From a phage, in sequence record PZ347775.1: a stretch of DNA of 64,000 bases. One strand, 5' to 3'. Of this stretch, positions 13,693-64,000 are shown in pieces. Every line of letters begins with the position of its first letter. Within the stretch, counting starts at the first letter, position 1. The translations under genes and the position numbers were made by a program. The notes beneath the pieces were generated by a model that was not told the origin of the DNA, did no database searches, and was given only the letters and a program-made list of their open reading frames with translations.

Positions 13693-13935
13693 TCAAACAG
13701 ACTTTTTCACAGTTTTCCAATCAGCTTTAAACTGATCGACGTCAGAATGGTAAATCCAGAATCCTGCGCTTTCTCCATCTTCATAAAGAGGACATCCATC
13801 GCATTCATCTTCCCATCCCATATCACGCAAAAGACGTTCAGCTTTTTCAACAAGTTCAGAATCTTTACCGATGATATTAAAATACCATTTACCCCTAACT
13901 TCTGAATCTTTAATGCTCTGACGTTGTAATCTCAT
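13693..13935 (-). CDS. hypothetical protein (80 aa)
   Basis: ORF track; AAGGAG SD; early promoter upstream. Confidence 0.55.
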   Translation of the reverse strand: MRLQRQSIKDSEVRGKWYFNIIGKDSELVEKAERLLRDMGWEDECDGCPLYEDGESAGFWIYHSDVDQFKADWKTVKKSV

Positions 13936-13960
13936 TTTATTCTCCTTAGTTGATAGGGTA

Positions 13961-13990
13961 ATAGTATCACACTACTACCCTACTGTAAAC
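13961..13990 (-). promoter_or_regulatory. sigma70 early promoter (GTTTAC -35, TACTAT -10) with stem-loop
   Basis: Reverse complement GTTTAC-18nt-TACTAT; inverted repeat agggta/taccct within spacer. Confidence 0.5.
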
Positions 13991-14352
13991 TACTTTTTGA
14001 AAGTTTTTCGCAAAAGTTCAATGATTTCATCTACATTGTTTTCGTCAACAATGCAGTGAATTTTTGTTACGCCAGAAACCTTGTCTTCGACTTCATCTTC
14101 AGAAGTCGGTTCTTTATACTCACGAAAACAATGAAATTCATCTTCGCAGACGTTGAAGTAAAAATGCTTTCCATTGGCGCATTCTACGTGTTTTACTACT
14201 TTAAATCCATCAGCAAAGAAAACTTCTTTAACTTCAAACCATCCGCCATTTTCTTGAATAGCTTTAACTATTAATGAATTAGAACGCGGGCGATAATTAA
14301 TAAATGTATCAATAAGTCTTGGAACAAGTTCGTACTTTTTATCAATATACAT
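13990..14352 (-). CDS. hypothetical protein (120 aa)
   Basis: ORF track. Confidence 0.55.
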   Translation of the reverse strand: MYIDKKYELVPRLIDTFINYRPRSNSLIVKAIQENGGWFEVKEVFFADGFKVVKHVECANGKHFYFNVCEDEFHCFREYKEPTSEDEVEDKVSGVTKIHCIVDENNVDEIIELLRKTFKK

Positions 14353-14396: not shown

Positions 14397-14627
14397 TTAC
14401 TGTTCAATCAATCCCATGTAAAATTCTGCATCTTCAGCATCCATACCATCACAGTATTCATTAGCCATAAATCGTTCAAGAACTTCTAAAGGACCTTCAA
14501 TAACAATAGAAAAATTGCAATAATTGGGATCATCATGAATACTTGTGATACTAAGTTCAGGATAACGATTACGAATAATTTCTTCAATATATTCAAAATC
14601 AACGATGTCAATATCAACTTTAGCCAT
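14397..14627 (-). CDS. hypothetical protein (about 76 aa)
   Basis: Track ORF 14397..14699 trimmed to internal Met (MAKVDIDIV) with AGAGGA SD so it no longer overlaps gene 32. Confidence 0.45.
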
Positions 14628-14640
14628 ATTATTTTCCTCT

Positions 14641-15564
14641 TTAATCATCAGCAGTATTGCCGATAGTTGTATAGTACCATAGGTCCGTGTCATCAGCACT
14701 AGATGAACTGCCAGAGCTTGAGCTCATAAAATCATCTTCAGTTTTTGTTTTGAAGTCATCAACATTGAATGCATCCAAATCATCAGCAACTTTATCGGCT
14801 TTCTTAGCAGCAGTTGCTGCGGCACCACCCATAGCAGCAGTTCCCATAACTTGACTGAACTTAGTGCTCAGTTCTTCAAACGATTTGAATTTATCTTTAG
14901 AAGTCATTTCAGAAAGGTCAACCATTTGTTCGAACAGTTCTTTCTGGAAAGATTCATCATCAATGTTTGGAATCGCAGATTGATTCAGGAATTTAGATTC
15001 GTCGTAGTTACTAAAACCAGAAACTTGTTTAACTTTCAATACAAAGTTAGCACCTTCCCACGGACAAGTTACATCAACCGGAGTTTCACCCATTTCAACA
15101 TCAACTGCAATCATTGCATTGATTTTATCCCAGATTTTCTTACCGAAACGGTATTTAAATACTTTACCTTCATTTTCTGGAGCAGCTGGGTCTTTTACTA
15201 CAAGAATGTTAGCCCAGTAAGAAGTTTTACGTTTAACAAGACCGTACTCTTTATTGTCAGTGTTATACAAATCATTTTTACTGATGTACTGACATACTGG
15301 ACAAGAATCGTAATCACCGTGGGTGGATGAACAGTTTTCAATATACCATTTACCATTTTTCTTGAAACCGTGATTTACAAGAATTGCGAATGGTGCTTGT
15401 TCATCATTTTTAGACGGAAGAAAACGAATTACTGCTTGACCGTTACCCGCATTGTCGAGTTTCAGTTTCCACTCGCCTTTATCTTCAGAAGAAAAACCAC
15501 CTTTATTTCCAGCCAGTTTAGCCATTTGTGCAGCGAGTTCAGCAGTAGATTTACGTTTAAACAT
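14641..15564 (-). CDS. 32: single-stranded DNA-binding protein gp32
   Basis: 307 aa; zinc-binding motif H...C...C...C ([12 protein letters not shown]); acidic C-terminus. Confidence 0.95.
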
Positions 15565-17928: not shown

Positions 17929-20900
17929 ATGGCCGAGATTAAAAGAAAGTTCAGAGCAGAAGATGGTCTGGACGCAGGTGGCGATAAAATAATCAACGTA
18001 GCTTTAGCTGATCGTACCGTAGGAACTGACGGTGTTAACGTTGATTACCTAATTCAAGAAAACACAGTTCAACAATATGATCCAACTCGTGGATATTTAA
18101 AAGATTTTGTAATCATTTATGATAACCGCTTTTGGGCTGCTATAAATGATATTCCAAAACCGGCAGGAACTTTTAATAGTGGACGCTGGAGAGCATTGCG
18201 TACTGATGCTAACTGGATCACAGTTTCATCTGGTTCATATCAATTAAAATCTGGTGAAGCTATTTCAGTTAACACTGCAGCTGGTAATGATATCACATTT
18301 ACTTTACCATCTACTCCAATTGATGGTGATACTATCGTTCTCCAAGACATTGGAGGAAAACCTGGAGTTAACCAAGTTTTAATTGTAGCTCCAGTGCAAA
18401 GTATTGTAAACTTCAGAGGTCAGCAAGTACGTTCAGTACTAATGACTCATCCAAAGTCGCAGTTAGTTTTAATTTTTAGCAATCGTCTGTGGCAAATGTA
18501 TGTGGCTGATTATAGTAGAGAAGCTGTAGTTGTAACACCAGCGAATACTTATCAAGCGCAATCCAACGATTTTATCGTACGTAGATTTACTTCTGCTGCA
18601 CCGATTAATATTAAACTTCCGAGATTTGCTAATCACGGCGATATTATTAATTTCGTCGATTTGGATAAATTAAACCCTCTTTATCATACAATTGTTACTA
18701 CATACGATGAAACGACATCAGTACAAGAAGATGGAACTCATTCCATTGAAGGCCGTACATCTATTGATGGTTTCTTGATGTATGATGATAATGAAAAATT
18801 GTGGAGATTGTTTGACGGGGATAGTAAAGCACGTTTACGTATCATAACAACTAATTCAAACATTCGTCCAAATGAAGAAGTTATGGTATTTGGTGCGAAT
18901 AATGGAACAACCCAAACAATTGAACTTCAGCTTCCAACTAATATTTCTGTTGGTGATACTGTCAAAATTTCCATGAATTACATGCGAAAAGGACAAACAG
19001 TTAAAATCAAAGCTGCAGGTGAAGATAAAATTGCTTCTTCAGTTCAATTGCTGCAATTCCCAAAACGTTCAGAATATCCACCTGAAGCTGAATGGGTGAC
19101 TGTTCAAGAATTAGTTTTTAACGGTGAAACTAATTATGTTCCAGTTTTACAACTTGCTTATATAGAAGATTCTGACGGAAAATACTGGGTTGTACAGCAA
19201 AACGTTCCAACTGTTGAAAGAGTTGATTCTTTAAATGATTCTACTAGAGCAAGATTAGGCGTAATTGCTTTAGCTACACAAGCTCAAGCTAATGTCGATT
19301 TAGAAAATTCTCCACAAAAAGAATTAGCAATTACTCCAGAAACATTAGCTAACCGTACTGCTACAGAAACTCGTAGAGGTATCGCAAGAATAGCAACTAC
19401 TGCTCAAGTGAATCAGAACACTACATTCTCTTTTGCTGACGATATTATCATCACTCCTAAAAAGCTGAATGAAAGAACTGCTACAGAAACTCGTAGAGGT
19501 GTTGCTGAAATTGCTACGCAGCAGGAAACTAATGCAGGTACTGATGATACTACAATCATCACTCCTAAAAAGCTTCAAGCTCGTCAAGGTTCTGAATCAT
19601 TATCTGGTATTGTAACCTTTGTATCTACCGCAGGAGCTACTCCAGCTTCTAGCCGTGAATTAAATGGTACAAATGTTTACAATAAAAACACTAATAATTT
19701 AGTTGTTTCGCCTAAAGCTTTGGATCAGTATAAAGCTACTCCAACACAACAAGGTGCAGTAATTTTAGCAGTTGAAAGCGAAGTAATTGCTGGACAGAGT
19801 CAAGAAGGATGGGCAAATGCTGTTGTAACGCCAGAAACGTTACATAAAAAGACATCAACTGATGCAAGAATTGGTTTAATTGAAATTGCTACACAAAGTG
19901 AAGTTAATACAGGAACTGATTATACTCGTGCAGTCACTCCTAAAACTTTAAATGACCGTATAGCAACTGAAAGTTTAAGTGGTATAGCTGAAATTGCTAC
20001 GCAAGTTGAATTCGACGCAGGCGTCGACGATACTCGTATCTCTACACCATTAAAAATTAAAACCAGATTTAATAGTACTGATCGTACTTCTGTTGTTGCT
20101 CTATCTGGATTAGTTGAATCAGGAACTCTCTGGGACCATTATACCCTTAATATTCTTGAAGCAAATGAGACACAGCGTGGTACACTTCGTGTAGCTACAC
20201 AAGTTGAAGCTGCTGCAGGAACATTGGATAATGTTTTAATAACTCCTAAAAAGCTTTTAGGTACTAAATCTACCGAATCGCAGGAAGGTGTTATTAAAGT
20301 TGCAACTCAGTCTGAAACTGTAACTGGAACGTCAGCAAATACTGCTGTATCTCCAAAAAATTTAAAATGGATTGTGCAGAGTGAACCTACTTGGGCAGCT
20401 ACTACTGCGATAAGAGGTTTTGTTAAAACTTCATCCGGTTCAATTACATTCGTTGGTAATGATACAGCTGGTTCTACGCAGGACTTAGAGCTATACGAGA
20501 AAAATAGCTATGCAGTATCACCGTACGAATTAAACCGTGTATTAGCAAATTATTTGCCGTTAAAAGCAAAAGCCGCTGACGCGAATTTATTAGATGGTCT
20601 AGATTCATCTCAGTTCATTCGTAGGGATATTGCGCAGACGGTTAATGGTTCACTAACCTTAACCCAACAAACGAATCTGAGTGCCCCTCTTGTATCATCT
20701 AGTACTGCTACGTTTGGTGGATCAGTTTCGGCAAATAGTACATTAACTATTTCTAATACTGGAACGGCAACTCGTCTGATTTTTGAGAAAGGACCTCAAA
20801 CTGGAACTAACCCAGTACAGACGATGACTATCAGAGTTTGGGGAAATCAGTTTGGTGGCGGTTCAGATACAACACGTTCTACTGTATTTGAAGTTGGTGA

Positions 20901-26808: not shown

Positions 26809-27360
26809 ATGAAAATATATCATTATTATTTTGACACTAAAGAATTTTACAAAGAAGAAAATTACAAACCGGTTAAAGGCCTCGGTCTTCCTGCTCATTC
26901 AACAATTAAAAAACCTTTAGAACCTAAAGAAGGATACGCAGTTGTATTTGATGAACGTATTCAGGATTGGATTTATGAAGAAGACCATCGCGGTAAACGG
27001 GCTTGGACTTTTAATAAAGAAGAAATCTTAATAACTGACATAGGAAGCCCGGTTGGTATAACTTTTGATGAACCCGGCGAATTTGATATATGGACTGATG
27101 ATGGTTGGAAAGAAGACGAAACATATAAACGCGTTTTAATTCGTAATAGAAAAATTGAAGAATTATATAAAGAATTCCAAGTATTGAATAATATGATCGA
27201 AGCTTCAGTTGCAAATAAAAAGGAAAAATTCTATTATCAAAACCTTAAACGGTTCTTTGCTCTTTTAGAAAAGCATGAGCATTTAGGTGGTGAATTTCCT
27301 AAATGGCCTGAAAAAGAATGGAAGCCTTGGTATAAGCGTTTATTCAGGAATTACGTATAA
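26809..27360 (+). CDS. 38: tail fiber assembly chaperone gp38
   Basis: 183 aa; immediately downstream of gp37. Confidence 0.8.
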   Translation: MKIYHYYFDTKEFYKEENYKPVKGLGLPAHSTIKKPLEPKEGYAVVFDERIQDWIYEEDHRGKRAWTFNKEEILITDIGSPVGITFDEPGEFDIWTDDGWKEDETYKRVLIRNRKIEELYKEFQVLNNMIEASVANKKEKFYYQNLKRFFALLEKHEHLGGEFPKWPEKEWKPWYKRLFRNYV

Positions 27361-30130: not shown

Positions 30131-30766
30131 TCACAGTTCAGATGCCACGATGATTACAGCTTCAATGTTTTCTGCCGAGCGTTTAATGTCAAGATACACA
30201 TTACCGTTTTTAGCGATTTTACATGACATTCCAATATCAGTAAATTTCTGAATATGATGTTCCATCATTTTGTATCCAAAAATTCGCATATTTCCATTGT
30301 TGTTAATTTCAAAATTACGAATTCCGTGAGTGCGTTTTTCTAAAATAGCGAGATAGTTACTACGATAAGTTTCAACCTTTTTAAGAACAAATCCATTTTC
30401 ATCTAAAAGTTTTAACATGAAGTCTTTATCTTCTTCCATATCAGAAGTAATCTCGCGAGCTTTACGAGTTGCTCGTTTTTTCAGTAGTTCCGGAGCATTT
30501 TCCTGTGCGTATAAAGTTGCTGCATTTGAAATAATATCCTGAGCTTCACCTGTAATGATTAATCCATCACCAGATTTCTCCACCAGGCCTTTTTTAATCA
30601 ATACCCCAATATTACTATTAACTACTGCATTACCTAAATCTGTATGCACCTCACGAACTTCTGCAGCTGTAATGAAATCTTTCTTAGCAATGGTAATTAA
30701 AATCGCAGCAGTTTTTTCATTCAGAACATCGTTAGAAGCTTTGATGATGTAAGTTACTTTAGACAT
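30131..30766 (-). CDS. motA: middle-transcription activator MotA
   Basis: 211 aa as T4 MotA; between asiA block and gene 52. Confidence 0.85.
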   Translation of the reverse strand: MSKVTYIIKASNDVLNEKTAAILITIAKKDFITAAEVREVHTDLGNAVVNSNIGVLIKKGLVEKSGDGLIITGEAQDIISNAATLYAQENAPELLKKRATRKAREITSDMEEDKDFMLKLLDENGFVLKKVETYRSNYLAILEKRTHGIRNFEINNNGNMRIFGYKMMEHHIQKFTDIGMSCKIAKNGNVYLDIKRSAENIEAVIIVASEL

Positions 30767-30854
30767 TTTCTAATCTCCGTAATTCTGTATCAGTAGTTGA
30801 TAGTTGTATAATACCACAGTATGCTTTGGGGGAGAGCCTCGGCTCTCCCTAAAA

Positions 30855-31004
30855 TTACTGCATGACTGTGATAACTGTCATGATAACACGTTGAATGCCG
30901 AACGCAAGAAGACCTCCTGCTACGGCTGGAACAACACCTAAACCCGCCAGTAAAATGCTACCAGATACTAATGCCGCGCTTGTAATACCTATAAATGGAC
31001 TCAT
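30855..31004 (-). CDS. small hydrophobic protein (49 aa)
   Basis: Hand-read ORF MSPFIGITSAALVSGSILLAGLGVVPAVAGG...; start overlaps gene 52 stop; below ORF-track size cutoff. Confidence 0.4.
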   Translation of the reverse strand: MSPFIGITSAALVSGSILLAGLGVVPAVAGGLLAFGIQRVIMTVITVMQ

Positions 31005-33878: not shown

Positions 33879-33906
33879 TTTCTGTTCCTCCGTAGTTGAT
33901 AAGATA

Positions 33907-33936
33907 ATAATACCACAGAGGAACAGTCTTGTAAAC
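33907..33936 (-). promoter_or_regulatory. sigma70 early promoter (GTTTAC -35, TATTAT -10)
   Basis: Reverse complement GTTTAC-18nt-TATTAT; conserved cassette-like downstream leader. Confidence 0.5.
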
Positions 33937-34121
33937 AACTTTTTTAAAAATATTCGTAATAAATGTGAATGCCAATCACTACTGCCGAAACTTGCGCAAC
34001 CCACCACGCACACGCAATAAGTACAGAATTCAAAATTTTCATAATAACCTCATCACAAAAGTAAATGTTAAACAAATTAATGGAATACTAATTAACCAAA
34101 TAAAACACCACCATAATGAAC

Positions 34122-34394
34122 TCATAGTTCAATCTCAGCGATTTTCATTTCATTACTACTAATAGACGCTTTAAGACTATCTGAAAGAATTACATTCCAG
34201 TGGTCATTCATATGACCATTAACTAAGCGTGTAATTTCTTCGGGAGTTGAAAAATAAGGCGTATCAGACTCCCAGTGCGATAGTCCCAAGCGAGTATAAA
34301 TCATACCTTCATCATCGCTAGAATATTCAACTGACACAAACTCATCAGTTATTTTATGCTTAGCGTAATAAAATTTAAATTTCATTTTACTCAA
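34122..34394 (-). CDS. hypothetical protein (90 aa)
   Basis: ORF track. Confidence 0.5.
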   Translation of the reverse strand: MSKMKFKFYYAKHKITDEFVSVEYSSDDEGMIYTRLGLSHWESDTPYFSTPEEITRLVNGHMNDHWNVILSDSLKASISSNEMKIAEIEL

Positions 34395-34597
34395 TAATCC
34401 GCTAAAAGATCGACGATTGCATCACGAAGACACTTATTCGCAATACGCTTAAGAGCAATTTCAGTTTCTGGAGCATTTTGAATAATCATTGAATTCAATT
34501 CAGCCTCAGCAAACTGAAGTTCTTTGACTAATTCAGCTTTATATTTTCCTTGCCCTTTCTTAGCTTTTGCTCGTTTTAATTCAGCTGTAGTAAACAT
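34391..34597 (-). CDS. hypothetical protein (about 68 aa)
   Basis: Track ORF trimmed to MFTTAELK; upstream part of track ORF is the promoter cassette. Confidence 0.5.
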   Translation of the reverse strand: MFTTAELKRAKAKKGQGKYKAELVKELQFAEAELNSMIIQNAPETEIALKRIANKCLRDAIVDLLADY

Positions 34598-34631
34598 TTT
34601 ATTCTCCAAATCCGCATCAGTTGATAGTTGT

Positions 34632-34661
34632 ATAGTACCACAGTCCTTGTGGTTTGTAAAC
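34632..34661 (-). promoter_or_regulatory. sigma70 early promoter (GTTTAC -35, TACTAT -10), cassette copy B
   Basis: Reverse complement GTTTAC-18nt-TACTAT; 43-nt downstream leader nearly identical to copy at 61964-62006. Confidence 0.55.
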
Positions 34662-34677
34662 CGTTTTGTGAAAATTT

Positions 34678-35235
34678 TTAAATGGAAAGATACCATCCGT
34701 TGTAGTTGCTTTTTCTTACAACTTTACGAAGGTCTTCTCTATCACCGATGAACTTCGGAGTGTACTGGATGACACCTGGATGAATTTCTTTAGTGTTGAA
34801 TATAATTATACAGTCAGCGACTTGGTGATTCAGAATGGGCCCTAGATTTATTCCAGAACCGTATGGATACTCTCCGCTGCATCCGGTTGTTACCGAAATC
34901 CAACGTGAGTCAGTTTGGTGTGTCTTAACTTCTACACGAAGCCCGCAATATCTTGGATGCGCCAATACATCCCATGCGTATGTATACGGGTCATTAACAT
35001 CCTCTTGGCCTTTGTTAACATACCCGCTCAGCCAATCTGCTACAAAAAACTCTGCATACACAGCGATACGGCATCTTTCGATAACTTCTGCTTTATCCTG
35101 ATTAGGATTTTGTTTTAAAGAGTATCTTGCTGTATCAGCAATTTTGACCTTCATTTCACTAGTCAAATCATTGTTCGATAGGGTAAATGTTGGAATCTGA
35201 AATAGTCTCTGTAAACCCGGATTCGTTTTCTGCAT
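34678..35235 (-). CDS. denB: endonuclease IV
   Basis: 185 aa as T4 DenB; adjacent to rIIB. Confidence 0.75.
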   Translation of the reverse strand: MQKTNPGLQRLFQIPTFTLSNNDLTSEMKVKIADTARYSLKQNPNQDKAEVIERCRIAVYAEFFVADWLSGYVNKGQEDVNDPYTYAWDVLAHPRYCGLRVEVKTHQTDSRWISVTTGCSGEYPYGSGINLGPILNHQVADCIIIFNTKEIHPGVIQYTPKFIGDREDLRKVVRKSNYNGWYLSI

Positions 35236-42293: not shown

Positions 42294-42563
42294 TTAATTG
42301 AACAGTGGAGCGATGCGTTTCAGAAGAGTAGCAGCACCTTTGGCAAATTTTACATCATGAAAAACAGTTTCTTCTTCCGTTACAACACGAACTTTAATGT
42401 TTTCACAATCCCAATTTTTACGAACAATCTTCAAAAGCTGCAGTAAATCTTTACATTCAGCAATATCGATAACACATCCACGAGAATCTTCCATTATCGC
42501 ACGATAACCATAAGCCATACCATAATCGTTGAAAGATTGTTCGATGATAATTAAGTTTTCCAT
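42294..42563 (-). CDS. hypothetical protein (about 89 aa)
   Basis: Track ORF trimmed to first ATG MENLIIIEQ. Confidence 0.5.
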   Translation of the reverse strand: MENLIIIEQSFNDYGMAYGYRAIMEDSRGCVIDIAECKDLLQLLKIVRKNWDCENIKVRVVTEEETVFHDVKFAKGAATLLKRIAPLFN

Positions 42564-42591
42564 TTTATTCTCCAAGTTGTTTTCTGTATCA

Positions 42592-42660
42592 GTAGTTGAT
42601 ATTGATATAGTACCATAATCAACTACTGATGTATATAGTTTTATGAAAAAATTTTAAACT
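42592..42660 (-). promoter_or_regulatory. promoter/stem-loop cassette with 11-bp inverted repeat
   Basis: cagtagttgat...atcaactactg inverted repeat enclosing TACTAT; GTTTAA and TATATA motifs upstream; same leader family as other cassettes. Confidence 0.4.
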
Positions 42661-61338: not shown

Positions 61339-61719
61339 TTACTTAGTCAAATTTTTTACACATGAATTATAAGAATTTACTACATACTCCATCGGAGCAT
61401 TTTTACCGGTACGCCATTGGTAATTATTAGCCCAATTTGCCCAAAGTTCAGCACAGTAGTTTTCAATTTTTTCTTCACGCGTAATCACATCTGAATTACG
61501 ATATGCTTGTGCAGATTCATCTGGACGAATAGCTTCGTCAAAATTCGCCTGCATTTGTTCTACTGTCTGTTTTGGAGCCTCTTTATAACACTTGACGTTA
61601 GGATTATAAAATTTGCTTGAACAGTTTACAATTTTTCCTACATCAGACTGATTTACTACTGGTCCTTGAGCTACACATCCAGTAAGACCCAATGCAATAA
61701 CCAAAATAGCGATTTTCAT
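61339..61719 (-). CDS. predicted lipoprotein (126 aa)
   Basis: Signal peptide + lipobox ALGLTGC. Confidence 0.55.
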   Translation of the reverse strand: MKIAILVIALGLTGCVAQGPVVNQSDVGKIVNCSSKFYNPNVKCYKEAPKQTVEQMQANFDEAIRPDESAQAYRNSDVITREEKIENYCAELWANWANNYQWRTGKNAPMEYVVNSYNSCVKNLTK

Positions 61720-61729
61720 AATAATTTCC

Positions 61730-61966
61730 TCAAATACAAGTAGTAATTACTCCAGTAGTGCTTACACAGGTATTACCTAATTGAACACCCAGCGTTCCAT
61801 TAGTATTCATATGAAGATTATCATCAATTTTTGTTGATACTTTACCATTCATGTGAATAATAGTATTAGATTCAATCACATTCTGAGTGTCATTTTCAAT
61901 ATCAATAAATGGAACAGTTGCTAATGCAACTAAACACACTGCTAAACAACCATAAACAATTTTCAT
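61730..61966 (-). CDS. secreted/membrane protein (about 78 aa)
   Basis: Track ORF trimmed to MKIVYGCLAVCLVALATVPF (signal-like N-terminus); upstream track residues are promoter cassette. Confidence 0.45.
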   Translation of the reverse strand: MKIVYGCLAVCLVALATVPFIDIENDTQNVIESNTIIHMNGKVSTKIDDNLHMNTNGTLGVQLGNTCVSTTGVITTCI

Positions 61967-62000
61967 TTTATTCTCCAAATCCGTATCAGTTGATAGTTGT

Positions 62001-62030
62001 ATAGTATCATGGAAGAACGGGAATGTAAAC
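62001..62030 (-). promoter_or_regulatory. sigma70 early promoter (GTTTAC -35, TACTAT -10), cassette copy C
   Basis: Reverse complement GTTTAC-18nt-TACTAT; leader nearly identical to copy B at 34595-34637. Confidence 0.55.
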
Positions 62031-62112
62031 AGTTTTGTGAAAAAATTTTTAATGAATTTACAGGACCTAGAATCATCTATTTTTCCTAAGTATAGATTTA
62101 TATTACTTGTAT

Positions 62113-62135
62113 GAAAAAGGGACCCGGAGGTCCCT
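62113..62135 (-). terminator. rho-independent terminator after gene 43
   Basis: mRNA agggacc-UCCG-ggucccu hairpin followed by UUUUU. Confidence 0.65.
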
Positions 62136-62147
62136 AGATTTATTCTA

Positions 62148-64000
62148 TCAGCCAAACAGGAAGTCTAACGAAGCTTTTTCCTCATAGTCCATACCTGCCG
62201 ATTCACACATACCCGCAAGCGGTTTAACAAACGATTTTTGGAACAAAGTTGAGTAGTCAATCCAAGACAGCACGTCAGAACGAATTTCTTTTGGAAGTTC
62301 CGTACCCGATGGCCAAGCAATGCACTTGTCACCAAATGGATTTCCTTCACGTAATGGAAGAACCATTACCTTATTTCCATCCAAAATTGGAGCTACACCT
62401 AAACCGCTAACAGCTCGACGATAAGTTAGCACACCACGAATATGGAACGGACATTTAAATCCTGGCCAACCTTTATCATCATATTTCGCTATATCGTTCG
62501 CAGTTTTTACTTCAGCAATAACTTTATAGTCAAGTTGACGATATTCTTTCTCAAAGTTCTTGTAGTATTCTTGGACAGACTCTTCGCCTTCCTGAAGAAT
62601 ACGACGAATACTTTCTTCGAGAGCTTCTTGTACTGCTTTTGGTGTTGAGCTCTGCTGAGTTTCCATACCCATGATTTTTAGATGCGGTTCGGCAAATCGC
62701 TTATCTTCCATATCATAAACGTTCAGAGCATAACGTTTTTTCGCTTTCCAAAATCCACCAACGCCCTTTGAACCAAGCGGAGGGCAAGAAATAGCTTCAC
62801 GGTCCATATGCATCAGATGCTCGCGGTTATTCATATAATCACATAACTCACGATATGCAACATCAATCATAGGTTCCATCTTTTTCTTACCAAACTGATT
62901 CATGAATTCAACTAAATCATTTTGTTCTTTAAAGCGATCAAGACCTACTTTTTCAATAACTTTATCTACACAAACATATACCGAATCAGTATCACCTGCT
63001 GCGATGAAATCTTCACCATTAGTTCCACATACTTTATTCAGATATTCATTAATTTTGCGAGCAATCCACTGAATACCAACTTGTCCAAAAATCGTGATAG
63101 CAGTAGCATTTCGCAAATCATAGTAGCGGAAATGAATATTACCAAGAGCACCATAAAGACTGTTGATAAGAATTTTACGGTTCAGCTGATTTGTGTTAGC
63201 AAGTGTAGCTGCTTTTTCACATTCTTCAATCAAACTATTGAGAACAGATTCAGTATAATTCGATAGTTCATTTAAGAAATCATCACTGAACTTAACATAT
63301 CGTTCAACTTCAGGTTTAGTTGAACAGGACCCTGCACCTTTCATAATAATCTTTTTAATAGCTTCGGCATTCATTTCTTCGGCGAACATTTTCTTTTTCC
63401 AATCTTTACGCTGGAAAAATACTTTAGCGATTTCCTTTGGAATGATACCTTCTTGATGCTTATCATACATCCATCCATTCGGAGAACATGAATACTCATC
63501 ACTTGGCTTAGGAGCTGTTCCTGCGATATATTCATGAATTGGATGAACTTTAAACTGTCCACGAATAGTCTCAGGACTAATGTTAACCTGACGAATAATG
63601 CTAGGATACAGAGACGTCAAGTCAAAACTCATAATGTATCGACGAGCAATTGGTTTAGGTTCAAACACAAATGCACCCGGAAAACTCTGTTTAACGTGTG
63701 AACCTTGTTGAGGAATAACCTTATGTTCACTTTTCAACGAGTTAAAAATAATAGCATCCCAAGTTTTAATAGGACTCATTACACCAGAAAAAGGCATTTT
63801 AGCATAATAAGACATACTTAAAACTAGATCGATAAACCCACGAATTTTATCAATTGCTTGAACTGATTCTACGTCAATAATGTTATAACTAATGTATCGT
63901 TGATGATTAGTCTCACGAAGTTTATTAATAGGACCATCGTACGGCAATTTACCTTTTTTGGTTTCATGTTGAGCAACTGATTCCAAAGAGAATGATGGCA
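62148..64000 (-). CDS. 43: DNA polymerase gp43, C-terminal part (5' end beyond window)
   Basis: Family B polymerase motifs DLTSLYPSII (motif A) and AGDTDSVYV (motif C); frame continues to window edge. Confidence 0.95.
   Translation of the reverse strand, partial: PSFSLESVAQHETKKGKLPYDGPINKLRETNHQRYISYNIIDVESVQAIDKIRGFIDLVLSMSYYAKMPFSGVMSPIKTWDAIIFNSLKSEHKVIPQQGSHVKQSFPGAFVFEPKPIARRYIMSFDLTSLYPSIIRQVNISPETIRGQFKVHPIHEYIAGTAPKPSDEYSCSPNGWMYDKHQEGIIPKEIAKVFFQRKDWKKKMFAEEMNAEAIKKIIMKGAGSCSTKPEVERYVKFSDDFLNELSNYTESVLNSLIEECEKAATLANTNQLNRKILINSLYGALGNIHFRYYDLRNATAITIFGQVGIQWIARKINEYLNKVCGTNGEDFIAAGDTDSVYVCVDKVIEKVGLDRFKEQNDLVEFMNQFGKKKMEPMIDVAYRELCDYMNNREHLMHMDREAISCPPLGSKGVGGFWKAKKRYALNVYDMEDKRFAEPHLKIMGMETQQSSTPKAVQEALEESIRRILQEGEESVQEYYKNFEKEYRQLDYKVIAEVKTANDIAKYDDKGWPGFKCPFHIRGVLTYRRAVSGLGVAPILDGNKVMVLPLREGNPFGDKCIAWPSGTELPKEIRSDVLSWIDYSTLFQKSFVKPLAGMCESAGMDYEEKASLDFLFG

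Follow-up and report, generated by a model that had tools for sequence, protein, structure and literature searches.

A repeated, predicted early-promoter and leader cassette in front of two unrelated small genes of a T4-like phage

Why should two small genes that have nothing in common, 27 kb apart in the same phage genome, be preceded by almost the same promoter and 5' leader? The question arises at the end of denB in the 64,000-nt stretch analysed here (the window), which belongs to a Tequatrovirus, i.e. a T4-like phage. The original prediction saw in this pair the signature of promoter-early stem-loop (PeSL) cassettes, mobile elements that mediate module shuffling. We think it quite probable that the two copies, called A and B in the following, are Tequatrovirus early expression cassettes, dispersed as repeats that shuffle small ORFs by homologous recombination, in agreement with the PeSL "linker" model.

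Copy A lies on the minus strand directly after denB (34678-35235), a gene whose identity comes from annotated relatives. Its AT-rich, UP-element-like block TTTAAAAATTTTCACAAAACG (34661..34685) overlaps the stop codon of denB (TAA, 34678-34680) and leads into the −35 hexamer TTTACA (34655..34660; in the T4 form GTTTAC, 34656-34661). There follow a 17-nt spacer AACCACAAGGACTGTGG (34638..34654), in which an inverted repeat, ACCACA/TGTGGT, is found together with the TGn of an extended −10, and the −10 hexamer TACTAT (34632..34637). Judging from the usual 7-nt distance, transcription would start near the A at 34625. The initial transcribed region and 5' leader (34598..34631), delimited by alignment of the family copies, is a type-1 short variant with one ACT less. 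It runs into a Shine-Dalgarno sequence that is also a RegB/S1 target, GGAGAATAAAA (34597..34607), with the predicted cut between 34606 and 34605. The gene behind copy A is a 68-aa ORFan, ORF68 (MFTTAELKRAK..., 34391..34597, minus strand), of PHROG 4535 and of unknown function. At its junction with ORF87, the second gene of the module (34122..34385, minus strand; an 87-aa ORFan of PHROG 2390), local alignment to the leader reveals its tail once more in degenerate form, GCGGATTATTGAGTAAAATG (34383..34402, minus strand), which forms with the true leader tail of copy A direct repeats on either side of ORF68.

Copy B, also on the minus strand, is found between gene 43 and imm. The intrinsic terminator of gene 43 (AGGGACC-TCCG-GGTCCCT then TTTTT, 62118..62135), detected by terminator scan and folding and annotated as such in phage SA21RB, stands 89 nt upstream of the copy B −35. 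The construction is again an AT-rich, UP-element-like block TAAAAATTTTTTCACAAAACT (62030..62054), a −35 hexamer TTTACA (62024..62029), a 17-nt spacer TTCCCGTTCTTCCATGA (62007..62023) and a −10 hexamer TACTAT with TG upstream (62001..62006); the promoter scan returned TTTACA-17-TACTAT for A and B alike, in each case with a TG ahead of the −10. The copy B spacer has no hairpin and is of the 'GTTCTTCC' class, common to imm.1, e.8 and ndd.4 of T4. A transcript would begin near 61994 on the minus strand. The type-1 short leader (61967..62000) differs from that of copy A in one base (A vs G), and the Shine-Dalgarno and RegB/S1 motif GGAGAATAAAA is matched exactly at 61966..61976. The cargo is ORF78 (61730..61966, minus strand), a 78-aa ORFan of PHROG 4189, after which comes imm.1 (61339-61719). 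The N-terminus of the 78-aa protein is hydrophobic (MKIVYGCLAVCLVALATVPF), which is consistent with a putative secreted or membrane protein.

The likeness of the two copies is uneven along their length. Pairwise alignment of the minus strand at 34595-34637 and 61964-62006 gives 42 identical positions out of 43, in a stretch that begins with the −10 box, includes the Shine-Dalgarno sequence and ends in the ATG (TACTATACAACTATCAACTGAT[G/A]CGGATTTGGAGAATAAAATG), where 100 shuffles lead one to expect none; a repeat search recovered the same pair as 46 nt at 96%. The repeated leader of about 43 nt that had been claimed is therefore real, and so is the sharing of the GTTTAC −35 and its flanks: the two sites 34656-34674 and 62025-62043 carry the UP/−35 block TTTTCACAAAAC[G/T]GTTTAC without deviation, and 23 of 28 positions are identical between the segment 34655-34682 and its copy B counterpart. 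The spacer from TTTACA to TACTAT has only 5 of its 17 bases in common, i.e. chance level. It had been described as 18 nt long and wholly different; the difference stands, but the length had been counted from GTTTAC; counted as usual from TTTACA, it is 17 nt. The 60-nt flanks match at 15/60 positions upstream and 11/60 downstream, and therefore homology starts in the AT-rich block and stops exactly at the ATG. Near-identity is confined to the −10/leader half, the promoter halves being of different spacer lineages. The proteins encoded downstream (68 aa and 78 aa) are unrelated, as was stated originally: BLASTP gave no alignment between them, and they fall into different PHROGs, both of unknown function and without Pfam match. 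It is thus confirmed that two unrelated small genes sit behind a nearly identical 5' leader and what is predicted to be a strong early promoter.

Both copies display the pattern of T4 early promoters: GTTTAC occupies about −36 to −31 downstream of an UP element, and TGn precedes a −10 box whose positions −11 and −7 are A and T. This early promoter (Pe) class is reportedly also treated by Liebig and Ruger (1989) and Miller (2003). From their sequence, A and B would be very strong promoters for the host sigma-70 polymerase, of the T4 early class. T4 early promoters have been described as UP/−35/TGn/−10 promoters (Hinton 2010, PMC2988021) with a GTTTAC −35 (Nolan 2006, PMC1524935). That class is defined by recognition by RNA polymerase, whereas the cassette adds to the same signals a conserved transcribed leader that reaches the ATG.

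The leader is about 28 nt long, and its ribosome-binding site, GGAGAAUAAAA, coincides exactly with the sequence published as optimal for cleavage by RegB/S1. At 34597-34607 and 61966-61976, GGAGAATAAAA reproduces this T4 optimum and fits the consensus GGAGRAYARAA (Durand et al. 2006, PMC1702504; PMC3014915); as in the known sites, it lies in an early translation initiation region and is predicted to be single-stranded. The element GGAGAATAAAATG has four exact occurrences in the window, all four at cassettes, against 0.01 expected. We infer that RegB cleaves at copies A and B. The regB gene is assumed to be present in this phage because of its wide distribution among T4 relatives (PMC3014915), its locus lying outside the window (at about 62 kb in T4). 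In the available part of the text of Durand et al. (2006, PMC1702504), cleavage at the copy A and B sites was not found. The presence of an optimal RegB/S1 site within the common ribosome-binding site had escaped the original prediction.

The pair belongs to a larger family. The core TAYTATACAACTATCAACT is found at five sites in the window at <=3 mismatches, three of them exact, against 0.04 expected; T4 has at least nine copies, six exact and three degenerate. The repeat search gave seven cassette copies within the window. A scan of IMG/VR for the exact leader yielded no more than 5 loci, not enough for an analysis of populations, and GenBank phage records were used instead; there the notion of a dispersed cassette was borne out by 2,555 matching places in 544 records, about 4.7 per genome. 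In the family alignment, homology sets in at the AT-rich block and ceases at the ATG. All other members placed in the window are on the minus strand. One, at 13933..13994, has a GTTTAC promoter and a short leader ending in GGAGAATAAAATG. Another, the frd.3 leader (14625..14685), has kept only the −10 box and leader, which a 117-bp deletion joined to the end of gene 32. The motA member (30764..30860) combines the common −10/initial transcribed core with a type-3 leader and is devoid of UP and −35, a terminator stem being fused to its spacer; motA itself is early in T4 omics data. The member at 42561..42658, before an 89-aa ORF preceding cef, has a type-2 leader also ending in GGAGAATAAAATG. Finally, the repeat search located a member (33889..33944) that is oriented like copy A and lies about 725 bp further downstream, and these two bracket the ORF68-ORF87-ndd.6/.5 block.

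Orthologous copies in T4 stand before imm.1, ndd.6, motA, nrdC.10, nrdC.8, e.8, frd.3, cef and denV. Outside the genus, Moonvirus CF1 and Gelderlandvirus STML-198 have a single copy, identical to copy B at 45 of 46 bases over the −10 and leader, before a gene native to those genera and within flanks that are otherwise unalignable. The Moonvirus copy is followed by a 59-aa ORF, which showed no homology to ORF68.

Comparison of the T4 copies with each other reveals a mosaic. The spacers of nrdC.10 and frd.3 are 100% identical and their leaders 56%, while the nrdC.10 leader is 100% identical to that of copy B. At e.8, a spacer of the imm.1 class (77%) is joined to a cef-type leader (97%), and imm.1 and ndd.4 agree at 94% in the spacer and 58% in the leader. 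Spacer types and leader types are, by these alignments, reassorted among cassette copies. The state of the ACT indel agrees between copies A and B in 8/8 genomes, the variant of BCPShso_001 being ambiguous; reading this concordance as concerted evolution or gene conversion was set aside, because shared descent (T4 and PYPS2T are possibly sisters) or ACTACT slippage could explain it.

The genes behind the cassettes change as well, and the denB-ndd and 43-imm regions that hold copies A and B are variable between relatives. Among 10 genomes compared at the copy A locus, all four combinations of presence and absence of ORF68 and ORF87 occur. ORF68 is missing from ZN18, PYPS2T, BCPShso_001, Shfl2 and T4, and ZN18 has in its place a hybrid leader tail GGAGAGTAAAATGAAATTT; of ORF87, T4 and T2 retain only the last 8 codons (MKIAEIEL and stop). 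The junctions are at the ATG, in the degenerate leader tail and at the direct repeats AAT(A/G)AAATGAAA. The copy B locus is found in three states, namely ORF78 followed by imm.1, imm.1 alone (the 78-aa ORF is missing from T4 and BCPShso_001), and another leader with an 83-aa ORF (T2). Two states exist at the locus preceding cef, with the 89-aa ORF in some genomes and remnants of 11-20 codons in others. The proposed tie to module shuffling is upheld in this respect, since the genes behind both copies have been inserted, deleted or replaced in relatives with junctions at the cassette.

These observations are best accommodated if the two unrelated genes share a cassette because it is a dispersed repeat on which T4-type homologous recombination acts. 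Crossovers in the invariant core TGGTACTATACAACTATCAACT would reassort promoter halves and leader halves, and crossovers in the leader tail (...GGAGAATAAAATGAAA) would lead to insertion, deletion or replacement of small ORFs. "Mobile" most likely means, in this case, ordinary homologous recombination between repeated cassettes. An ORF behind the cassette would be expressed, from transcription to translation, during the first minute of infection, until the RegB cut inside the Shine-Dalgarno sequence inactivates the mRNA functionally. The function of the cassette, promoter activity included, is predicted from its sequence and from the T4 literature on orthologous or paralogous sites.

The construction is in large part known. 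The closest counterparts are the PST/T4 PeSLs, which, in the accessible part of their description (Comeau, Arbiol & Krisch 2014, PMC4122927), come from the same genus and have the same consensus TTTACW-N17-TAYWAT, an AT-rich upstream block and a Shine-Dalgarno sequence with ATG at the 3' end; they are also repeated and lie between genes in hyperplastic regions, where the neighbouring small ORFs vary from one close relative to the next. The AT-rich upstream block reads TTTAAAAATTTTCACAAAAC in copy A and TAAAAATTTTTTCACAAAAC in copy B. Both copies close with GGAGAATAAAATG, so that the element terminates in the Shine-Dalgarno sequence and the ATG of the gene that follows. The legend of fig. 6A in the same article illustrates a PeSL exchange in the denB-ndd region (ndd.4/.5 vs ORF268/269), a few hundred bp from copy A. 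Within that accessible text, the leader as a RegB site and the reassortment of spacer and leader types are not described.

The stem-loop is where the agreement is partial. The original assignment to PeSLs holds for the promoter, the Shine-Dalgarno/ATG end, the repeat family and the gene turnover at the cassette, while a clear stem-loop exists for copy B only. PST/T4 PeSLs, as far as the accessible text goes, have it just upstream of the promoter (PMC4122927). That of copy B, the 7-bp GC-rich terminator with its T-run, is 89 nt away, and copy A has no convincing one: the terminator scan found no terminator-like site there, and its two 6-bp hairpins, one at the end of denB and one in the spacer (the latter of −7.2 kcal/mol), are not significant against shuffles (z = −1.55 and −1.33). 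In the T4 paralogues before motA, frd.3 and nrdC.10 the terminator directly abuts the UP block.

PeSLs of RB49 and phi1 (Arbiol et al. 2010, PMC2839356) are likewise composites of promoter and stem-loop that end in Shine-Dalgarno/ATG and serve as "linkers" whose homology allows ORFans to be inserted, deleted or replaced; their promoter and terminator activity and the occurrence of mini-circles were demonstrated by experiment (PMC2839356). However, they have near-perfect TTGACA/TATAAT boxes and G-run/C-run stems, with no sequence similarity to the present cassette, and the T-even early-promoter repeats have been called "not homologs ... but analogs" of them (PMC2839356). The repeats of T-even internal-protein genes (Repoila et al. 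1994, as summarised in part in Arbiol 2010, PMC2839356) are also early-promoter-based and bound variable small genes, and were proposed to confine shuffling to their loci, although these are other loci, ipI-III. The pair is real and the PeSL reading is supported, being already known; T4 early promoters, PeSLs and the RegB consensus are re-observed here, and no new kind of element is described.

The strongest competitor is that A and B are independent promoters whose likeness is due only to selection, purifying or convergent, in favour of sensitivity to RegB and of maximal transcription and translation early on, without exchange and with no role in shuffling. The best-conserved blocks are indeed known functional elements (UP, −35, TGn/−10 and GGAGAAUAAAA), and extra consensus regions are known in T4 early promoters (PMC2988021). 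Part of the conservation must be due to strong selection, acting on the promoter and on the translation signals. However, identity covers positions without known function (ACAACTATCAACTGATRCGGATTT), other active early promoters of the same genomes have quite different leaders (types 3 to 5), and discrete spacer and leader haplotypes are reassorted. Moreover, the breakpoints of gene indels fall in leader tails, and the match of 45/46 persists in other genera despite the unalignable flanks. In our opinion, selection as the whole explanation is improbable, and recombination, not selection alone, would maintain the identity of the copies.

A second group of ideas gives the core a more specific role. 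One of them is that the 22-nt core TGGTACTATACAACTATCAACT, with its imperfect palindrome, is a recognised exchange site, either bound or nicked by a phage protein or recombinogenic through R-loops that the promoter drives, giving an integron-like capture of genes and a promoter-only unit movable between genera; such intergeneric movement might be suggested by the single Moonvirus and Gelderlandvirus copies, but we find this very unlikely. The related proposal of a site-specific system, in which a phage protein recognises the core or the palindrome TATCA-ACT(ACT)-TGATA and catalyses excision and integration, seems to us highly unlikely. It can draw on the short palindrome within the invariant core, on the same 13-mer, inverted, in the spacer of the copy preceding cef, and on the possible helper protein suggested by Arbiol (2010, PMC2839356), with mini-circles detected in RB49/phi1. 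Nevertheless, the junctions are at varied short homologies (core, leader tail, ATGAAA repeats) and not at a single fixed site, the short variant carried by both window copies has lost the palindrome, and T4 recombination needs only patches of homology <50 bp (Singer 1982, cited in the accessible part of Arbiol 2010, PMC2839356). Integron cassettes and lambdoid "morons" are comparable as small gene units with expression signals that are added to variable regions, but the present cassette has no associated integrase or attC-type site, unlike integron cassettes.

A structured leader RNA was also considered and rejected. Across six constructs, folding energies deviate from shuffled controls by z of only −0.5 to +0.45. 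The leader alone has a minimum free energy of −1.5 kcal/mol, with GGAG unpaired and no stable fold; together with >=30 nt of coding sequence the energies are no better than those of shuffles (z 0.16 to 0.45). The Rfam 15 covariance models gave no match at E <= 1 over 34300-34900 and 61650-62250. It is thus extremely unlikely that the two genes are controlled jointly through a structured or trans-regulated RNA, be it a riboregulator, the target of an sRNA or an operator bound by a protein, with conservation unrelated to recombination, even if a near-identical 34-nt leader before unrelated genes suits a common trans-acting regulator, of which RegB/S1, acting on the last 11 nt, is one, given this lack of structure and of Rfam matches and the loss of the sole candidate hairpin, UAUCA-ACUAC-UGAUA (−1.9 kcal/mol), from the short variant at both window copies.

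In the preferred reading, by homologous recombination between dispersed repeats, the cassette would let T4-like phages add, drop or swap small accessory genes while leaving the neighbours undisturbed. A gene that lands behind it would be expressed at once and then silenced by the cut in the ribosome-binding site, if the RegB prediction holds. For phage engineering, it offers a compact, roughly 90-bp module predicted to turn a gene on immediately and then off.

There is also a use in annotation, since public records omit these promoters or run spurious ORFs across them. No promoter is annotated at the copy A or B sites in the records of relatives. A coding cause for the conservation of the leader, be it a small ORF or an in-frame N-terminal extension, was rejected, as such frames start upstream of the promoter, where A and B share no sequence. 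An example of a small ORF drawn across the cassette is the one of 37 aa at 61963-62076, which is annotated in WL-3 and T2.

The likeness between the two minus-strand early promoter-leader cassettes, copies A and B, is real and far beyond chance. Minus is the strand of early genes in the window, and the copies were placed by means of annotated relatives and the T4 reference. Copy A lies directly 3' of denB, whose TAA stop codon (34678-34680, minus strand) falls inside the AT-rich block of the promoter, and copy B sits in the interval from the gene 43 (DNA polymerase) terminator to imm.1/imm. Hundreds of genomes of Tequatrovirus (T4-like coliphages) match 2-kb segments at both sites, with up to 98% identity. 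The original prediction had described a near-identical leader together with a common -35 and flanking block, and pairwise alignment bears this out: 42 of 43 positions are identical from the -10 box to the ATG (34595-34637 and 61964-62006; TACTATACAACTATCAACTGAT[G/A]CGGATTTGGAGAATAAAATG), which none of 100 shuffles equalled, and 23/28 in the UP/-35 block (34655-34682 in copy A). The spacer (34638-34654 in copy A) does differ, with 5/17 identity, but it counts 17 nt from TTTACA to TACTAT, not the 18 proposed. Identity is 15/60 in the upstream flank and 11/60 in the downstream one; the homology begins in the AT-rich block and ends exactly at the ATG. Protein comparison found no relationship between the 68-aa product encoded behind copy A (ORF68) and the 78-aa product behind copy B (ORF78), in keeping with the claim of unrelated genes; both are ORFans, assigned to PHROGs of unknown function and lacking a Pfam match. 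Since the segment identities and the unrelated proteins were confirmed, that description was accurate.

In each copy the promoter is TTTACA-17-TACTAT; an A/T-rich block precedes it, and a TG lies two bases before the -10 box. This is the UP/-35/TGn/-10 architecture of T4 early promoters, which outcompete host promoters for sigma-70 RNA polymerase (PMC2988021); the T4-specific -35 is GTTTAC (PMC1524935). If transcription started about 7 nt past the -10 box, the leader would be about 28 nt long. Its last 11 nt before the start-codon UG, GGAGAAUAAAA, are identical to the sequence that Durand et al. (PMC1702504) reported as needed if the T4 endoribonuclease RegB, together with ribosomal protein S1, is to cut efficiently, the RegB consensus being GGAGRAYARAA (PMC3014915). 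Exact GGAGAATAAAATG occurs four times in the window, in all four cases at early-promoter cassettes, and the regB gene lies outside the window. Cleavage by RegB would be expected at copies A and B. Given the early-promoter architecture and the RegB-type ribosome-binding site, the cassette may act as a portable unit that provides immediate expression and then shut-off by a RegB cut in the Shine-Dalgarno sequence. A structured or trans-regulated leader, RegB/S1 on the last 11 nt excepted, is not supported; structure prediction gave nothing significant (z-scores of -0.5 to +0.45 against shuffles), and no Rfam family matched the leader.

A repeat search of the window returned seven cassette copies, and the core TAYTATACAACTATCAACT is present five times at up to 3 mismatches (three exact; 0.04 expected). 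Six T4 sites have the exact core (upstream of imm.1, nrdC.8, nrdC.10, e.8, motA and ndd.6); at three others, those of cef, denV and frd.3, it is degenerate. The proposed search across T4-like genomes, performed with a 96-nt copy A query, found 2,555 matching sites across 544 phage records; a genome usually has 4-6 of them. Alignment of 14 copies revealed a common UP block (AAAAATTTTTTCACAAAACnGTTTACA), extended -10 (TGGTACTAT) and initial transcribed sequence (ACAACTATCAACT), 3' of which several discrete leader types follow. In many paralogues (T4 motA, frd.3, nrdC.10) a GC-rich terminator hairpin with a T-run abuts the UP block, and this terminator-promoter composite is the arrangement that defines promoter-early stem-loops (PeSLs). 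No relative that was inspected has the early promoters annotated. Annotated small ORFs or N-terminal extensions cross cassette B in WL-3 (L017 964-1077), T2 (L010 2143-2250) and SA21RB (L020 731-1078), and are probably annotation artefacts.

The window's motA cassette (30764-30860, minus strand) is about 39 bp shorter than in T4/T2: the T-run, UP element and -35 are gone, so that the terminator stem GGGAGAGCCGAGGCTCTCCC is joined directly to the spacer and extended -10 (TGGTATTAT); motA expression may therefore depend on the TGn/-10 promoter or on read-through. In Yersinia phage ZN18 the elements are similarly fused, and there is an additional 75-aa gene that has a cassette to itself. In cassette E, ahead of an 89-aa ORF before cef, ATCAGTAGTTGAT in the spacer and ATCAACTACTGAT in the leader are exact reverse complements (42589-42658, minus strand), which makes a 13-bp inverted repeat around the -10 box.

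Copies A and B have a common leader and different spacers because spacer and leader classes are reassorted among cassette copies, as seen in pairwise identities. The spacer of T4 nrdC.10 is 100% identical to that of frd.3, whereas its leader is 56% identical to frd.3 and 100% to copy B; T4 e.8 combines a spacer 77% identical to the imm.1 class with a leader 97% identical to the cef type; T4 imm.1 has a spacer 94% identical to ndd.4 and a leader 58% identical to ndd.4 and 96% to T4 copy A. One leader type, type-1, is combined with any of three spacer classes; conversely, spacers of the 'GTTCTTCC' class are combined with three types of leader. This reassortment places the crossovers in the invariant -10/initial-transcribed core. 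For an indel of one ACT unit in the leader, A and B agree in 8/8 genomes, namely those in which each locus has a type-1 leader (both long in T4 and PYPS2T, both short in the other six). It is a weaker signal, compatible with gene conversion, on which we do not rely because shared descent or repeat slippage would fit equally.

The genes behind the cassettes also vary among the ten genomes compared. Downstream of denB and copy A, ORF68, ORF87 (87 aa) and ndd.6 follow in the window, ime09, Killian and WL-3; ORF87 and ndd.6 in ZN18, PYPS2T, BCPShso_001 and Shfl2; ORF68, an 8-codon remnant and ndd.6 in T2; and the remnant and ndd.6 in T4. Where ORF68 meets ORF87, the sequence (GCGGATTATTGAGTAAAATG) is a degenerate leader-tail copy, and thus ORF68 has direct repeats on both sides. 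The T4/T2 remnant MKIAEIEL consists of the start codon region plus the last ORF87 codons, with a join spanning the repeats AAT(A/G)AAATGAAA. Those last eight codons look like a former leader tail and gene start absorbed into the coding region. At the start of T4 imm.1 (L003 ~27013-27056), the 18-nt AATGAAATGAAAATCGCT is identical to the ORF87 3' end in the window (34122-34150) and other phages. After gene 43, copy B is followed by ORF78 and imm.1 in the window, Shfl2 and WL-3, with an 85-aa form in Killian and ZN18 and a 78-aa sequence variant in PYPS2T, and directly by imm.1 in T4 and BCPShso_001; T2 has the same promoter half with an nrdC.8-type leader and an unrelated 83-aa ORF. The cef-proximal cassette precedes the 89-aa ORF in some phages and remnants of 11-20 codons in others. 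The predicted tie to module shuffling is supported by the spacer/leader mosaicism and by this cargo polymorphism with junctions at the cassette.

Single copies per genome occur in Citrobacter phage CF1 (Moonvirus), where the cassette is complete including the terminator (L023 501-589), and in Salmonella phage STML-198 (Gelderlandvirus), with -10 and leader only (L022 501-548), matching copy B at 45/46 bases over that stretch. Both precede a 59-aa ORF (MITAEQIKEM...) 3' of the RNA polymerase ADP-ribosylase gene. No DNA-level alignment links their flanks to the window, and tblastn with the product of the adjoining gene found no match there. Because these single copies front a 59-aa ORF confined to Moonvirus-like, Gelderlandvirus-like and allied phages, the comparison suggests that the cassette passed between genera as promoter only.

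The phenomenon is already in the literature, as T4 early promoters, PeSLs and the RegB consensus. Arbiol et al. (2010) described the PeSLs of RB49/phi1 as an AT-rich region, sigma-70 promoter, stem-loop, SD and ATG, demonstrated promoter and terminator activity and mini-circles, proposed them as recombination linkers for ORFan shuffling, and termed the T-even early-promoter repeats analogues, not homologues (PMC2839356). Comeau et al. (2014) extended the name to PST/T4, with consensus TTTACW-N17-TAYWAT, and illustrated the swap of ndd.4/.5 for other ORFs (PMC4122927), an exchange whose site is immediately downstream of copy A. Copies A and B have the promoter, AT-rich block, SD/ATG end, repetition and association with ORFans and indels; the stem-loop is clear but distant in copy B and unconvincing in copy A. 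On these features, and with that reservation for copy A, the predicted PeSL assignment largely holds, and we file both as T-even-type PeSLs or, equivalently, T4 early promoter-leader cassettes. A dedicated site-specific exchange mechanism seems unlikely, having no positive evidence: the short homologies at which junctions occur are of several kinds, and the window carries a variant whose core palindrome is broken. Nor is selection alone a sufficient explanation, as it does not account for haplotypes that are discrete and reassorted, for identity where no function of the positions is known, or for the indel junctions. To the published picture of T-even-type PeSLs we make modest additions: the ribosome-binding site common to A and B matches the RegB optimum exactly, the spacer half and the leader half are shown to have been reassorted, at either locus the gene indels are traceable to leader-tail repeats, and the cassette is found as a singleton in two other genera.

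Other repeats in the window, diverged in-gene direct repeats of 33-68 nt (families D2 and D6; 19330-20255, plus strand), are unrelated to cassettes A/B and are probably repeated domains of a tail-fibre gene. Close to the end of gene 32 (ssDNA-binding protein; 14641-15564, minus strand), the window carries a clean 117-bp deletion relative to T4 (14625-14700, minus strand). It looks rare or unique, since none of the 11 full-length matches listed, of 499 matching phage records, has it, each of the 11 aligning in two pieces over ~278 bp where the window has 161 bp; it could also be an assembly error. Gene 32 thereby loses its final 7 codons, its stop codon and its terminator hairpin, and the frd.3 early-promoter cassette loses the UP element, the -35 and the spacer. 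The gp32 C-terminus is consequently altered and no longer ends in ...DDTDLDDLLNDL*; its new tail is encoded by the former -10 box and leader.
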